32,118 nt of DNA from a virus. Taxonomy: Duplodnaviria; Heunggongvirae; Uroviricota; Caudoviricetes. Position 1 is the stretch's first letter, and the number at the start of each line of letters is the position of its first letter. A program made the position numbers and the translations under genes. The notes below the pieces were generated by a model that worked only from the letters and a program-made list of their open reading frames with translations, ran no database searches and was not told where the DNA came from. Positions 25,887 to 32,118 of this stretch are shown here, piece by piece. The stretch is taken from the IMG/VR virus record IMGVR_UViG_641736163_000005; one strand, written 5' to 3'.

Positions 25887-26183
25887 TCAGAATTGCATAT
25901 CAATTTGCTTAGCGTCCCCGGCGACCACCGGGGATTTTTTCTTTGTGATTCCATCAAGCGCATACTTAAAAGCCCTGCTAATTGGACTGATGTCTGATGC
26001 CATTCCGAAAGCACACAAGACCGAAGCAATAAATCTCCAGTCCGTTCTGCTTATCTTCGATTCATGACAGCCAATCATCTTTGCCAGACCACGCTGGGTA
26101 AGCGTTGACAGGTTGATGAGTAAATCTGTTTCTGCGCGATCAACGTCACGCTGTGATAGTTTGCTGTAACTTGTTCGTTCCAT
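25887..26183 (-). CDS. cII: CII-like transcriptional activator (non-lambda immunity type)
   Basis: 98 aa between cro and O; HTH-like centre (...QRGLAKMIGCHESKISRTDWR...); C-terminus ...AGDAKQIDMQF resembles lambda CII ...RSEQIQMEF. Confidence 0.7.
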   Translation of the reverse strand: MERTSYSKLSQRDVDRAETDLLINLSTLTQRGLAKMIGCHESKISRTDWRFIASVLCAFGMASDISPISRAFKYALDGITKKKSPVVAGDAKQIDMQF

Positions 26184-26260: not shown

Positions 26261-28214
<1,954 letters not shown>

Positions 28215-28241
28215 GTCGGCGGTGCAGATTGATAAAGAGCG
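28215..28241 (-). promoter_or_regulatory. nutR: nutR remnant: boxA (CGCTCTTTATCA) and 5' arm of boxB, cut by the IS21-family insertion
   Basis: Minus-strand CGCTCTTTATCA 8 nt after cro stop; reconstructed hairpin ACCGC-CGACAAC-GCGGT spans the insertion point; compare nutL at 30305-30340. Confidence 0.5.
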
Positions 28242-28248
28242 GTGTTAC

Positions 28249-28488
28249 TTATGCAGCCAGAAGGTTCTTTTTACTTATTTCAAGCATTTCGCTTGCTTGA
28301 TATTTGCCACCAGAAATCTCTTCGATTTTTGAGGCGTATTTCGTTTTCCCAAAAAACTCAGTCTTAGGGAGGAAGCCGTTTTTGAGCCACTTATAGACAG
28401 CCCTTTCGCTAACTCCACAAGCCTTCGCAACTTCAGGTATGCCGACACCTTTAATCGGCTCATCAAGATTTTGCATAGGAATACCCAT
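28249..28488 (-). CDS. cro: Cro-like HTH repressor
   Basis: 79 aa; HTH segment GIPEVAKACGVSERAVYKWLKNG; divergent from cI and upstream of nutR and cII. Confidence 0.6.
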   Translation of the reverse strand: MGIPMQNLDEPIKGVGIPEVAKACGVSERAVYKWLKNGFLPKTEFFGKTKYASKIEEISGGKYQASEMLEISKKNLLAA

Positions 28489-28554
28489 TTCGTACTTTCA
28501 GCACGCATTATGATTGAACTGAAAGTTTTTTGCAAGTGCTTTAGTATCGTACTC
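28489..28554. promoter_or_regulatory. oR/pR/pRM-like divergent operator-promoter region between cro and cI
   Basis: 66-bp cI-cro intergenic region with repeated TCGTAC-core motifs (28489-28495, 28545-28552) and inverted repeat CTTTCAG...CTGAAAG. Confidence 0.45.
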
Positions 28555-29262
28555 ATGGTTCAGAATGAAAAAGTGCGCAAAGAATTCGCCCAGCGGCTAG
28601 CGCAAGCCTGTAAAGAAGCTGGTCTTGATGAACATGGTAGGGGAATGGCTATAGCCCGTGCCCTTTCTCTTTCGTCCAAAGGCGTTAGCAAATGGTTTAA
28701 TGCTGAGTCTTTACCGCGTCAGGAAAAAATGAATGCGCTTGCGAAATTTCTAAACGTTGATGTTGTTTGGCTTCAGCACGGCACTTCGTTAAATGGAGCG
28801 AATGATGAAGATACTCTTTCATTTGTTGGCAAATTAAAAAAAGGGTTAGTGCGCGTGGTTGGTGAGGCAATTCTTGGTGTTGATGGTGCCATCGAGATGA
28901 CCGAAGAACGCGATGGGTGGCTCAAGATTTATAGCGATGATCCAGATGCCTTTGGTCTTCGTGTGAAAGGAGACAGCATGTGGCCCAGAATAAAATCAGG
29001 AGAATATGTACTCATTGAGCCTAACACCAAAGTATTCCCGGGTGATGAGGTGTTTGTCAGAACCATCGAAGGACACAACATGATCAAGATTCTTGGCTAT
29101 GACAGAGATGGAGAATACCAATTTACAAGCATCAACCAAGACCACAGACCAATAACGTTGCCTTATCATCAAGTAGCAAAGGTGGAGTATGTGGCTGGTA
29201 TTCTGAAGCAATCTCGCCATCTGGATGACATCGAGGCAAGGGAGTGGCTGAGAAATTATTAA
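28555..29262 (+). CDS. cI: CI-type prophage repressor (HTH plus LexA-like S24 peptidase domain)
   Basis: 235 aa from MVQNEKVRKEFAQRLAQACKEAGL...; C-terminal GDSMWPRIKSGEYVLIEP and KILGYD... resemble S24 Ser/Lys dyad regions. Confidence 0.8.
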   Translation: MVQNEKVRKEFAQRLAQACKEAGLDEHGRGMAIARALSLSSKGVSKWFNAESLPRQEKMNALAKFLNVDVVWLQHGTSLNGANDEDTLSFVGKLKKGLVRVVGEAILGVDGAIEMTEERDGWLKIYSDDPDAFGLRVKGDSMWPRIKSGEYVLIEPNTKVFPGDEVFVRTIEGHNMIKILGYDRDGEYQFTSINQDHRPITLPYHQVAKVEYVAGILKQSRHLDDIEAREWLRNY

Positions 29263-29428
29263 TACCAATAGCATAGAGACGAAAATGCGACAGGTTTTAG
29301 GTACAAATCATAACCCTATCCACAAACAACGTTGTAAATATACACATAAGACTATTGTAAAAAAAGCTCTATCCCAGTAAATGCGGTTGCAAAATGGGTT
29401 GATCGAGCATATATAAGGAGTATAGTTA

Positions 29429-29791
29429 GTGACCCAAGATGAAACGAATGAATATCTGAAAACCTTAGCATTGGTTCCAAGTGCAGAGGCCTCCGCAGAG
29501 GAGAAGCAGATATATAGCGTCAAAAAGGCTGTAATCGGTCTGATTGAATTTGTTACAACCAGTCTTGAAGAGCTTGGAATTGAAGGGTTGCATGAGTTAA
29601 CCAACCCATCTCTTGACGAATTAGATGCAGAGCTAGAGAAACTTGACCAAAAAGCTGATGCAATCAATGAACTAAACTTAAAGCAAATCATCATATTTGC
29701 ACAGATTTTAATCAAAAACATAAGAGAAAAGAATCCTGATTTGTGCTCTGAGGGATCAAAACTACTCAAGAGTGCTAAATCGGGTCTTTGA
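29429..29791 (+). CDS. hypothetical acidic helical protein (120 aa) at the rex-equivalent position
   Basis: GTG start with TAAGGAG RBS; AT-rich; no similarity recognised to RexA/RexB or anything else; candidate promoter TTGCAA-17-TATATA at about 29385-29413. Confidence 0.5.
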   Translation: MTQDETNEYLKTLALVPSAEASAEEKQIYSVKKAVIGLIEFVTTSLEELGIEGLHELTNPSLDELDAELEKLDQKADAINELNLKQIIIFAQILIKNIREKNPDLCSEGSKLLKSAKSGL

Positions 29792-29814
29792 CACTTACAG
29801 AGCGGAGGATAAAC

Positions 29815-29937
29815 ATGTCTAGAACTGAACATATCAAAGATATGCTTAAAAGTGCGGATCGAATCAATCAGATTATTGCTGAAATGAAGCAGAGAAAAGC
29901 AGAAATGCTAGCATCAAAGCTTCCAATGGCAGCATAA
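29815..29937 (+). CDS. hypothetical 40-aa protein, second gene of rex-position cassette
   Basis: ATG with GGAGG RBS (MSRTEHIKDMLKSADRINQIIAEMKQRKAEMLASKLPMAA); terminator immediately downstream. Confidence 0.35.
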   Translation: MSRTEHIKDMLKSADRINQIIAEMKQRKAEMLASKLPMAA

Positions 29938-29945
29938 CCAAAAAC

Positions 29946-29968
29946 ACCCGCTTCGGCGGGTTTTCTTA
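29946..29968 (+). terminator. intrinsic terminator after rex-position cassette
   Basis: ACCCGC-TTCG-GCGGGT hairpin followed by TTTTCTT. Confidence 0.6.
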
Positions 29969-30304
29969 TTCCCCTAAAAAGATCAAACAACTCCACATTA
30001 GCTTTTTTGTGCCCACAGTTTTCTACCTAGCAGTTTTCTTTGCCTCCCGATCCACCATCTAAAAACACATAACCAATTGTATTTATTGAAAAATAAATAG
30101 ATACAACTTGCTAAACCACGCAATTCTGATCCCTGCCGCATAACCTTCATCCGCAACATTTACAAAAATAAATTTCCTTATATATCAAAATCATATTTCG
30201 TAGAGTTAATAAACCACAAACGATTCGTACCAATAGTTCTTGATAATATCGAACTATTAGTTCATCATTATCACCATCAGCAGGACGTTGGAAGCCAAAC
30301 GGAA

Positions 30305-30340
30305 CAGATTGGCAGGCTCTTTAACTTCGATGGCGCGCTG
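30305..30340 (+). promoter_or_regulatory. nutL: nutL (boxA GCTCTTTAAC plus boxB hairpin GCGCGCTGACAAAGCGCG)
   Basis: boxA-like element then a boxB-like stem-loop with GACAAA loop, about 130 nt upstream of N; resembles my recollection of P22-type nut sites. Confidence 0.6.
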
Positions 30341-30468
30341 ACAAAGCGCGAACAGATACCAAACGAGATGGGTTTGGCGGTGATGTGAATTGCAGCAGCA
30401 ACGACAGCAACCAGAAGATCAGCATCTGACTCATCACCACCAAAGCCATTTCACATAAGGAAAATATC

Positions 30469-30777
30469 ATGACGGTAATCGTGTACGGAAAATCAACATT
30501 TGCAGGAAATGCCAAAACTCGCCGCCATGAGCGGCGCAGAAAGCTGGCTATCGAGCGTGATGCTATATGCAACATCATCGATTCGATCTTCGACACAGAC
30601 AGTGAGGAACCTGTTCAGGAAGAGCAGAAAAAGCGTTTAAGTCTTTCTGAAAAAGCAATATCACTCGGAAACCTTCGCTGCAAGAAAGAAGATGAATGCA
30701 GTGGAAGTATTTGCCTACCAAACGTAGCTCTTTACGCGGCAGGCTACCGGAAATCCAAACAACTGACAGCAAGATGA
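30469..30777 (+). CDS. N: N-type antiterminator (P22 gp24-like) with arginine-rich motif
   Basis: 102 aa MTVIVYGKSTFAGNAKTRRHERRRKLAIERDAICNIIDSIF...; ARM TRRHERRRKLAIER; closely resembles recalled P22 gene 24 N-terminus. Confidence 0.8.
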   Translation: MTVIVYGKSTFAGNAKTRRHERRRKLAIERDAICNIIDSIFDTDSEEPVQEEQKKRLSLSEKAISLGNLRCKKEDECSGSICLPNVALYAAGYRKSKQLTAR

Positions 30778-30835
30778 CTTGTGTTGGTCGCCAGAAAATG
30801 AAATTAGGCAGCAAACCACTTATTTGAGGTGATAT

Positions 30836-31285
30836 ATGGAAGAACAGGCAAATAAGATTCTCATAGAACTATTGCAAAAAGCCAGTAATGGAATAGACGC
30901 GGCTGTCTCATTTAGCCAGGCACAGATTCCTGATGTTGTTCATCAGTTGCTGCTATGGAACATGGTTGACAGTCTGATTAAAACATTAATAGCCATTTTA
31001 ACAATCCCGCTGGTTTTCTGGTTTATGAAGAAACAGTACCAAAAAGTTGAAATTGGTAAGTTCGATGATGAAGGATGGTCATGGGATAAGGGGAAGACTA
31101 AATACAAACCGACTATGATTTGGGAAAGTAACGGTGAGATTAGTTTTCTAATCTTACCATTAGCTGCAGTTTTTGTTCTGTGGGTAAGTTTTATTATTGC
31201 TGTAGTAACCAATATGACATGGTTAAAAATTTTGCTGGCTCCAAAGCTTTACCTTATCGAATATGCAGCATCATTGGTTAAGTAA
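30836..31285 (+). CDS. small inner-membrane protein (2 predicted TM helices), possible superinfection-exclusion protein
   Basis: 149 aa; hydrophobic segments IKTLIAILTIPLVFWFM and ISFLILPLAAVFVLWVSFIIAVV; AT-rich; follows N; terminator downstream. Confidence 0.5.
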   Translation: MEEQANKILIELLQKASNGIDAAVSFSQAQIPDVVHQLLLWNMVDSLIKTLIAILTIPLVFWFMKKQYQKVEIGKFDDEGWSWDKGKTKYKPTMIWESNGEISFLILPLAAVFVLWVSFIIAVVTNMTWLKILLAPKLYLIEYAASLVK

Positions 31286-31289
31286 TTTC

Positions 31290-31315
31290 AGGCCGCATAG
31301 TCGGCCTTTATTTTT
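31290..31315 (+). terminator. intrinsic terminator after membrane-protein gene
   Basis: AGGCCG-CATAGT-CGGCCT hairpin followed by TTATTTTTGG. Confidence 0.55.
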
Positions 31316-31420
31316 GGCACTAACAACAGAATAAACACTGCACTGTGTATTCATTCCAACGAGTGGGTGATGCTGCCAACTTACTGATTTAGTGTATGAT
31401 GGTGTTTTTGAGGTGCTCCA

Positions 31421-31696
31421 GTGGCTTCTGTTTCTATTAGCTGTCCCTCCTGTTCAGCTACTGACGGGGTGGTGCGTAACGGCAAAAGCACCGCCGGACA
31501 TCAGCGCTATCTCTGCTCTCACTGCCGTAAAACATGGCAACTGCAGTTCACTTACACCGCTTCTCAACCCGGTACGCACCAGAAAATCATTGATATGGCC
31601 ATGAATGGCGTTGGATGCCGGGCAACTGCCCGCATTATGGGCGTTGGCCTCAACACGATTTTACGTCACTTAAAAAACTCAGGCCGCAGTCGGTAA
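31421..31696 (+). CDS. insA: IS1 InsA (copy 2)
   Basis: Identical 91-aa InsA. Confidence 0.95.
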
Positions 31697-32118
31697 CCTC
31701 GCGCATACAGCCGGGCAGTGACGTCATCGTCTGCGCGGAAATGGACGAACAGTGGGGCTATGTCGGGGCTAAATCGCGCCAGCGCTGGCTGTTTTACGCG
31801 TATGACAGTCTCCGGAAGACGGTTGTTGCGCACGTATTCGGTGAACGCACTATGGCGACGCTGGGGCATCTTATGAGCCTGCTGTCACCCTTTGACGTGG
31901 TGATATGGATGACGGATGGCTGGCCGCTGTATGAATCCCGCCTGAAGGGAAAGCTGCACGTAATCAGCAAGCGATATACGCAGCGAATTGAGCGGCATAA
32001 CCTGAATCTGAGGCAGCACCTGGCACGGCTGGGACGGAAGTCGCTGTCGTTCTCAAAATCGGTGGAGCTGCATGACAAAGTCATCGGGCATTATCTGAAC
32101 ATAAAACACTATCAATAA
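31615..32118 (+). CDS. insB: IS1 InsB frame (copy 2, canonical C-terminus)
   Basis: 167-aa frame ending ...[20 protein letters not shown] with TAA at 32116-32118. Confidence 0.9.

Follow-up and report, generated by a model that had tools for sequence, protein, structure and literature searches.

The immunity region of the lambdoid prophage in IMG/VR virus record IMGVR_UViG_641736163_000005 raises the question of what two small genes are doing between its repressor gene cI and its antiterminator gene N. Here, the window denotes the whole stretch of this Caudoviricetes DNA that was analysed (32,118 nucleotides [nt]). The initial annotation had placed a two-gene cassette in this slot, which in lambda holds rexA-rexB, and had recognised neither product. 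Family matches of cI and N, together with the positions of the open reading frames (ORFs), confirmed this placement, and the cassette indeed belongs to no described family. It consists of ORF-A (120 amino acids [aa], 29429–29791) and ORF-B (40 aa, 29815–29937), which lie directly 3′ of cI on the same (plus) strand. The interval between cI and N is known as a mosaic hotspot, in which the abortive-infection systems rexAB and bstA reside and are expressed along with the repressor (PMC8585504). The cassette thus falls within a known class, that of repressor-adjacent prophage cargo, and the pair itself is unstudied. Our analysis gives good support to the view that the pair is an autonomous two-gene accessory module, which is probably expressed in the lysogen and whose two small, soluble, helical products almost certainly work together. 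Two features of the cassette were unexpected, namely an invariant Ala-Ala end of the ORF-B peptide and a candidate promoter that overlaps a ribosome-binding site.

A strictly paired cassette behind diverse repressors

To define the cassette as a unit, we examined its distribution and the pairing of its two genes. The cassette DNA was found in 4 of 5426 complete Escherichia coli genomes, with 99.9% identity, and had no match among 50,697 phage records. At the protein level, ORF-A is represented by 21 clusters among 5.8 billion proteins, and an exhaustive profile search of 1.84 billion proteins returned 30 representatives, all of which are stand-alone proteins of 59–135 aa. The family is carried by 48 of 2.9 million viral contigs in IMG/VR (16 distinct ORF-A sequences), a scan of species-representative genomes gave one locus, and the plasmid search returned no homologue. 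The pairing is strict: an ORF of 33–42 aa lies 23–43 nt downstream of every ORF-A homologue inspected, in a survey that covered Serratia, Pectobacterium, Pantoea, Salmonella houtenae, Rosenbergiella, Klebsiella phage RAH1, and the 48 IMG/VR contigs, and the two genes always occur together in about 20 independent Enterobacterales lineages. In Aeromonas phage AsXd-1, a 125-aa protein about 28% identical to ORF-A is followed by an ORF of 36 aa. A second, diverged lineage occupies the same cI–N slot in 32 E. coli genomes (locus L047, 3968–4348 and 4418–4519; locus L064 of NZ_CP019250.1, 4067–4447), where a 126-aa protein with 28% identity to ORF-A is followed by a 33-aa peptide ending in TKKAA. 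The RefSeq annotation of this lineage includes the large gene only, so the peptide gene has been missed.

Analysis of the genomic context, which the initial annotation had proposed as a check, revealed that the pair is nearly always located directly behind repressors with an S24 peptidase domain. Each distinct IMG/VR lineage that was inspected has this arrangement, on the same strand as the repressor, as do the loci of Serratia, Pectobacterium, Klebsiella, and Rosenbergiella, and the preceding repressors share 33–100% identity with one another. The cro-cI type of the window (at least 97% identity) is present in 427 E. coli genomes, 4 of which carry the cassette. In the non-carrier genomes listed, homology ends 7 nt short of the cI stop codon, and the two non-carriers inspected, both with a 97% identical cro-cI, hold other cargo in the slot: a DUF3024 protein, IS1, and a Ser/Thr kinase (933W Stk-like by annotation) in one (L066, 4575–7258), and a 299-aa hypothetical protein in the other (L067, 4644–5543). 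Such differing cargo behind the same immunity type illustrates the turnover of the slot. The separate acquisition suggested by the initial annotation is borne out by these counts and by the many unrelated repressors found upstream of the cassette.

Temperate phages carry autonomous accessory modules known as morons (as defined by Hendrix and Juhala), which are present in some phages and absent from near-identical relatives, which differ from their neighbours in base composition, and which bring a promoter upstream and a terminator downstream. The cassette shows the first two properties, the second to a modest degree, the GC content being 38.7% in the cassette, 44.9% in cI, 46.0% in N, and 50.9% over the whole window; with regard to the third, it has a stable, conserved terminator and a conserved promoter-like block of unusual geometry. 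The cassette had been described as much more AT-rich than the flanking cI and N genes; the direction of this difference holds and its size was overstated, and the pL region and the gene after N are as AT-rich as the cassette. Since only 4 carriers were found against 427 genomes with the same cro-cI, others of which hold different cargo, the cassette is, as judged from these sequence comparisons, best described as a mobile moron in the rex/bstA hotspot.

Three copies of the pair are not located behind a repressor. The AsXd-1 copy is situated between an integrase/DinI-like gene and the tail fibre genes, the Pantoea copy is at a prophage edge and convergent with umuC, and the Salmonella houtenae copy follows an S-type bacteriocin gene and its immunity gene. 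Genes associated with SOS lie next to all three (a DinI-like gene; a DinI fragment with the S-type bacteriocin; umuC with a small upstream gene; loci L015, 4398–4661; L013, 616–726; L010, 4604–6105), which may be a coincidence of cargo regions or a functional hint.

Comparison of 15 lineages indicated that both ORFs are under purifying selection, with proportions of nonsynonymous differences (pN) of 0.12–0.42 against saturated proportions of synonymous differences (pS) of 0.7–0.9. Two further ORFs in this interval, a 31-aa ORF in the spacer between cI and ORF-A (29285–29380, plus strand) and a 174-aa ORF antisense to ORF-A (29308–29832, minus strand), were dismissed, as the former is not conserved in related loci and the latter is not conserved in the homologues. 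Both probably represent chance ORFs in AT-rich DNA.

The two cassette products

ORF-A starts with GTG, preceded at a distance of 8 nt by a strong Shine-Dalgarno sequence (AAGGAG, 29415–29420). An in-frame TAG at 29423–29425 makes this GTG the first possible start, and it appears to be genuine because the codon changes at the N-terminus relative to the Serratia copy are mostly synonymous. ORF-B starts with ATG, 6 nt after a strong Shine-Dalgarno sequence (GGAGG, 29804–29808), and a GGAG-type site is found at this position in most lineages. The strong ribosome-binding sites reported for both genes are therefore present. In 13 of the 14 enterobacterial lineages, ORF-A relies on a weak start codon (GTG or TTG), while ORF-B has an ATG preceded by a GGAG-type site throughout. 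Kyte-Doolittle hydropathy over 19 residues peaks at 1.17 in ORF-A and at −0.07 in ORF-B, and by this measure neither protein contains a transmembrane segment of the kind expected for a RexB-type membrane component. With no hydrophobic or transmembrane segment, both proteins are expected to be cytoplasmic, and neither shows an enzyme-like motif.

As the initial annotation had proposed, ORF-A is an acidic helical protein (isoelectric point [pI] of 4.6, net charge of −9). AlphaFold2 (AF2) prediction from an alignment of 19 sequences gave an all-helical four- or five-helix bundle, with a mean predicted local distance difference test (pLDDT) of 73 and a predicted template modelling score (pTM) of 0.55. 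The conserved motifs of the family are G-[IM]-[ED]-G-[LM]..L-[TV]-[ND]-P-S-[LI]-[DE]-[DE]-L, N-[LI]-K-Q, and K-N-P-[DE]-[LM]-C. The invariant or near-invariant residues are Gly50, Pro60-Ser61 within (N/D)-P-S-L-D-E-L, and the N-P-D of K-N-P-D-L-C, and Cys106 is widely conserved. In the model, the invariant residues are located at helix ends and are read as structural capping or turn positions with no catalytic constellation; we therefore infer that ORF-A is likely a binding protein rather than an enzyme.

The only catalogued family that contains ORF-A proteins is phrog_16322 of PHROGs v4 (E = 1.7e-6 for ORF-A; in the wider family, 17 of 26 members match the profile, with the best at 8.2e-89), membership of which is uninformative on function because this PHROG is unannotated. 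Family scans of both proteins gave no significant Pfam, NCBIfam, or PADLOC match. The sequence-profile search of the PDB returned coiled-coil noise only, such as influenza HA2 at E of about 0.1, and Foldseek comparison of the ORF-A model with PDB and BFVD returned no match with E < 0.1. No toxin fold or family was recognised in the pair by these searches. A histidine-phosphotransfer (HPt) domain was considered for ORF-A and rejected, as His55 is not conserved across the family. In the matching E. coli genomes, the cassette ORFs are annotated merely as hypothetical, and the literature search found no mention of their RefSeq accessions, the PHROG, or the AsXd-1 copies of the genes.

ORF-B is predicted to form one long helix spanning residues 3–38 (pLDDT of 88, with the tail less confident). 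This helix is amphipathic, with a hydrophobic moment (muH) of 1.10 compared with 0.51 ± 0.27 in shuffled sequences. The C-terminus of the peptide is Ala-Ala in all 17 lineages, with Lys before it (Lys-Ala-Ala) in 16 of them, the copy from Aeromonas and the diverged lineage of E. coli among them; in the window, the copy ends in Met-Ala-Ala. The same end is found in most of the additional ORF-B clusters inspected in the profile search. In E. coli, ClpXP C-terminal degrons depend critically on a terminal Ala-Ala; Ala-Ala alone is insufficient, and Leu is preferred at position −3 (PMC10862746). The end of ORF-B resembles such a signal and is compatible with a putative ClpXP degron.

Upstream block, terminator, and surrounding immunity region

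Comparison of 14 lineages revealed a single conserved block upstream of ORF-A (29387–29428, plus strand), with the consensus TTG.AAA ... ttgAt.g ... ctATATAAGGAGTATa.TtA-gTG and an onset 42 nt before the start codon. Outside this block, the upstream DNA of different lineages cannot be aligned. Its conservation in the face of saturated synonymous sites indicates that the block is strongly constrained. It contains two overlapping, sigma-70-like promoter registers: P1, with TTGCAA (29387–29392) and TATATA (29410–29415) separated by 17 nt, and P2, with TTGATC (29399–29404) and TATAGT (29421–29426) separated by 16 nt. P1 is the promoter proposed in the initial annotation; its elements are present and conserved, its coordinates were about 2 nt off, and the promoter scan lists P2 instead. 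The −35 element of P1 is found in 14 of 14 lineages, and its −10 element lacks the usual T at position 6, which is why the consensus scan did not list it. The −10 element of P2 is near-consensus in all lineages, while its −35 element is found in only about 8 of 14. As promoter-like sites are not enriched as a class (5 found against 6.0 expected from shuffles), the support for the block as a promoter is its conservation across lineages.

The position of this candidate promoter relative to the ORF-A start is unusual, with the Shine-Dalgarno sequence of ORF-A situated between the −10 elements of P1 and P2. The predicted transcription starts, at about 29422 (P1) and about 29433 (P2), are past the Shine-Dalgarno sequence, and that of P2 is also past the GTG. 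Since the −10 element of P1 abuts the Shine-Dalgarno sequence, a transcript initiated at P1 would not contain the ribosome-binding site of ORF-A. In addition, the terminator scan predicted no terminator between cI and ORF-A (29263–29428). Taken together, these positions suggest that ORF-A may be translated efficiently only from repressor read-through transcripts, and that transcripts initiated within the cassette would mainly express ORF-B. In AsXd-1, both registers recur (TTGAAA-17-CATCAT and TTGATT-16-TATGAT) 45 nt upstream of the ATG, which is an ordinary promoter position.

At its distal end, the cassette is closed by a Rho-independent terminator on the plus strand, 9 nt past the ORF-B stop (29946–29968; stem 29946–29961), in which the hairpin ACCCGC-TTCG-GCGGGT is followed by the T-rich tail TTTCTTATT. 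It had been noted in the initial annotation and is supported by its folding energy (−11 kcal/mol, z = −2.97). The position of the terminator is conserved in other lineages, with different stems. It also scores on the minus strand (tail GTTTTTGGTT), and in the relatives from Serratia and Klebsiella the terminator is where a small convergent gene ends (DUF2767, or ORF7 of phage RAH1). The window contains no DUF2767-like convergent gene, just a non-conserved 53-aa ORF (29998–30159, minus strand). Some Serratia loci have a 34-aa YoaK-family small-protein gene between repressor and cassette (L007/L008, 5607–5711), and Serratia prophages share a leader of ~280 nt upstream of the cassette, common to loci with different repressors (L007/L008, 5712–6000; L004/L006, 5726–6000), which could hold another promoter or an RNA element.

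The 3′ end of the window is the immunity region of a lambdoid prophage, with the lambda cro/cI-rex-N gene order in an orientation reversed relative to the lambda map. It includes a cro-like helix-turn-helix (HTH) gene (28249–28488, minus strand), the cI-type repressor gene with HTH and S24 peptidase domains (28555–29262, plus strand; Pfam Peptidase_S24 4.2e-16, HTH_3 1.2e-5), and N (30469–30777, plus strand; PF25694 4.2e-41), which forms the far border of the rex slot. The promoter scan gave a candidate pL (TTGATA-17-CATCAT, 30240–30268), which is flanked by an inverted repeat (30229–30239/30251–30261), and the N leader contains a boxB-like hairpin (GCGCT-GACAA-AGCGC, 30335–30349), which we take to be similar to the P22-type nutL boxB. 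Rfam scanning of 28100–31400 gave only chance matches below threshold, and the search for LexA boxes found none near the cassette. We also considered whether the svsR small RNA of NC-SV prophages could be the cassette and rejected this, as svsR sits within the 3′ end of cI.

The place that sieB has in lambda, directly after N, is taken by a gene for a 149-aa membrane protein (30836–31285, plus strand; maximum 19-residue Kyte-Doolittle hydropathy of 2.82), which may be another exclusion candidate. The protein matches phrog_3054 (9e-60), whose function is not annotated, has no Pfam match, and shares 82% identity with the gene in the same place of L047-type prophages. On the cro side, an IS21-family insertion sequence (IS; 26347–28148, plus strand) with istA (340 aa) and istB (260 aa), annotated as IS100 in the matching E. 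coli genomes, is inserted between a cII-like gene (25887–26183, minus strand) and cro. This insertion cuts the early-right operon, which renders the prophage defective, while the immunity region and the cassette are still intact. On the other side, IS1 (about 31392–32118; insA/insB-like ORFs at 31421–31696 and 31615–32118) truncates the early-left operon just beyond the gene next to N, so that two insertion sequences bracket the cro-cI-cassette-N block.

Possible roles of the pair and known systems

As a possible role of the cassette, we tentatively propose a defence or exclusion pair that protects the lysogen, with ORF-A as the effector and ORF-B as its labile antagonist. According to this proposal, the pair would be transcribed in the lysogen both from its own promoter and on transcripts that start at the repressor promoter and read through. 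ORF-A would be made sparingly because of its GTG or TTG start and would act as a stoichiometric binding effector, whereas ORF-B, with its ATG start and strong ribosome-binding site, would be abundant. The hydrophobic stripe of ORF-B could dock on ORF-A, as an antagonist or a partner, and its exposed C-terminal Ala-Ala would make it a substrate of ClpXP. Were ORF-B to be titrated or its synthesis to stop, as when an infecting phage shuts off host expression, the freed ORF-A would act on a host or phage target, and the infection would be aborted or excluded. The overall logic would resemble that of toxin-antitoxin (TA) systems, with an abortive or exclusion outcome that protects the lysogen population. 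The most specific form of the proposal, which we consider rather doubtful, is a hitherto unrecognised, very small anti-phage system (about 160 aa for both proteins) that Enterobacterales prophages carry in the hotspot next to the repressor and in which an acidic, non-enzymatic helical-bundle effector is checked by a 40-aa helix timed by ClpXP, and in which the promoter/ribosome-binding-site block sets different A:B ratios on read-through and cassette-initiated transcripts, by analogy with the rexB-only pLIT transcript of lambda.

Several observations weigh against a role in defence. ORF-A is unlike any known toxin, and its acidic, non-enzymatic profile is more typical of inhibitors and antitoxins; ORF-B has no DNA-binding domain and in this respect is unlike the antitoxins of type II systems. 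The position in a defence hotspot is circumstantial, as the slot carries non-defence cargo too. The partial AbiEi match obtained for ORF-A, and not for ORF-B, in PADLOC-DB v2.0.0 (E 0.0041, 14.8 bits) is probably due to chance. In the putative degron, the residue at −3 is Lys instead of the preferred Leu, or Met in the window copy, and the Ala-Ala is necessary but not sufficient. Finally, the odd promoter geometry means that ORF-A may be translated only from read-through transcripts.

Comparison with the neighbouring systems of the slot reveals both likeness and difference. Like the cassette, lambda rexA-rexB consists of two genes on the repressor strand between cI and pL/N, with a terminator before pL, and both may use the repressor promoter together with a second internal promoter that favours the distal gene. 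In lambda, these elements are pLIT, which gives the rexB-only transcript that the proposed ORF-B-biased transcript resembles, and tImm. RexA is a protein of about 279 aa and RexB is a polytopic membrane protein, whereas the cassette products are tiny and soluble, which excludes a membrane-depolarising mechanism of the Rex type. No match to the Rex families was found in Pfam, NCBIfam, PHROG, or PADLOC at E ≤ 1. BstA of the Salmonella prophage BTP1 is cargo directly downstream of the repressor, with its own terminator, occurring behind diverse repressors and occasionally elsewhere (PMC8585504). The cassette shares this repressor-adjacent slot and mobility with BstA, which differs in being a single large protein with no sequence or fold similarity to the cassette proteins. 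Type II TA systems with a protease-labile antitoxin, for example Phd/Doc of P1, offer a further parallel: the cassette is likewise a two-gene operon on a mobile element, its genes seem set up to be expressed unequally, and its small partner carries a putative ClpXP degron. It differs from these systems in that it lacks a known toxin fold, a DNA-binding domain in the would-be antitoxin, and an operator palindrome, and its order would be toxin-first.

The same evidence bears on other roles of the pair. The idea that there is no functional unit, and that the two genes are chance ORFs or decaying remnants in an AT-rich spacer, has a negligible probability and is effectively refuted. It could appeal to the hypothetical annotations, to the small ORF left unannotated in the diverged E. 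coli lineage, and to the long ORF antisense to ORF-A; against it stand the purifying selection on both genes with saturated synonymous sites, the retention of length, order, and C-terminus down to 28% identity, the conserved ribosome-binding sites and terminator, and the lack of conservation of the antisense ORF. Among functional roles, the pair might modulate lysogeny and induction, tuning the switch of its own prophage rather than acting on other phages, which we regard as fairly unlikely. It could do so by buffering the RecA*-stimulated cleavage of the repressor, or ORF-B could inhibit ClpXP or a different AAA+ protease, or serve it as a decoy substrate, in the way that lambda CIII acts on FtsH and that RexB has been reported to act on ClpP-dependent degradation. 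Such a role would fit the nearly constant co-orientation of the pair directly behind an S24, RecA-cleavable repressor, the SOS-associated neighbours at the three repressor-free loci, the conserved Ala-Ala of ORF-B, and the acidic, non-enzymatic character of ORF-A, which recalls DinI-type mimics. However, DinI, umuDC, and bacteriocins are common prophage cargo, and the association may reflect cargo regions only; there is no LexA box near the cassette, family scans gave no homology to DinI, PsiB, or CIII, and the movement of the cassette independently of repressor type would be unexpected for a partner of one repressor.

An effect on the host is also conceivable. In a lysogenic conversion resembling Hha/TomB (YmoA/YmoB), the pair would change the expression of the host and not that of the phage, with an acidic bundle of ~120 aa, which bears a conserved C-terminal Cys, and a small helical partner bound to a global regulator or nucleoid protein. 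We judge this role unlikely, given that hhalign comparison with TomB gave a probability of 0.2% and BLASTP an E of 10, that no PF10757-type match was obtained, that the fold match is generic, that ORF-B is not Hha-like, and that TomB and Hha are chromosomal rather than prophage cargo. As a pure addiction module, a TA-like pair would penalise the loss of the prophage or its immunity region and have no effect on other phages. The features that suggest an effector with a labile antagonist apply here as well, and the cassette has stayed intact in a prophage disrupted by IS100 and IS1. On the other hand, this role leaves the same gaps as the defence proposal, the rarity of the family (4 of the E. 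coli genomes and 48 of the viral contigs surveyed) suggests weak selfish spread, and a defence function has emerged for many TA modules, which together make it improbable.

The repressor-adjacent slot has already been the source of RexAB, BstA, and the 933W kinase, and the cassette is a compact (0.7 kb), well-delimited, strongly conserved, and never-studied occupant of it, with an ORF-B-type peptide that has been overlooked by annotation in at least one lineage. The candidate promoter that overlaps a ribosome-binding site is a possible case of transcript-dependent translation. If the pair does act in defence or exclusion, it would represent a two-protein mechanism that is new, minimal, and equipped with its own proteolytic timer; if its role is instead to tune induction or the regulation of the host, it would represent a new class of lysogeny accessory factor.

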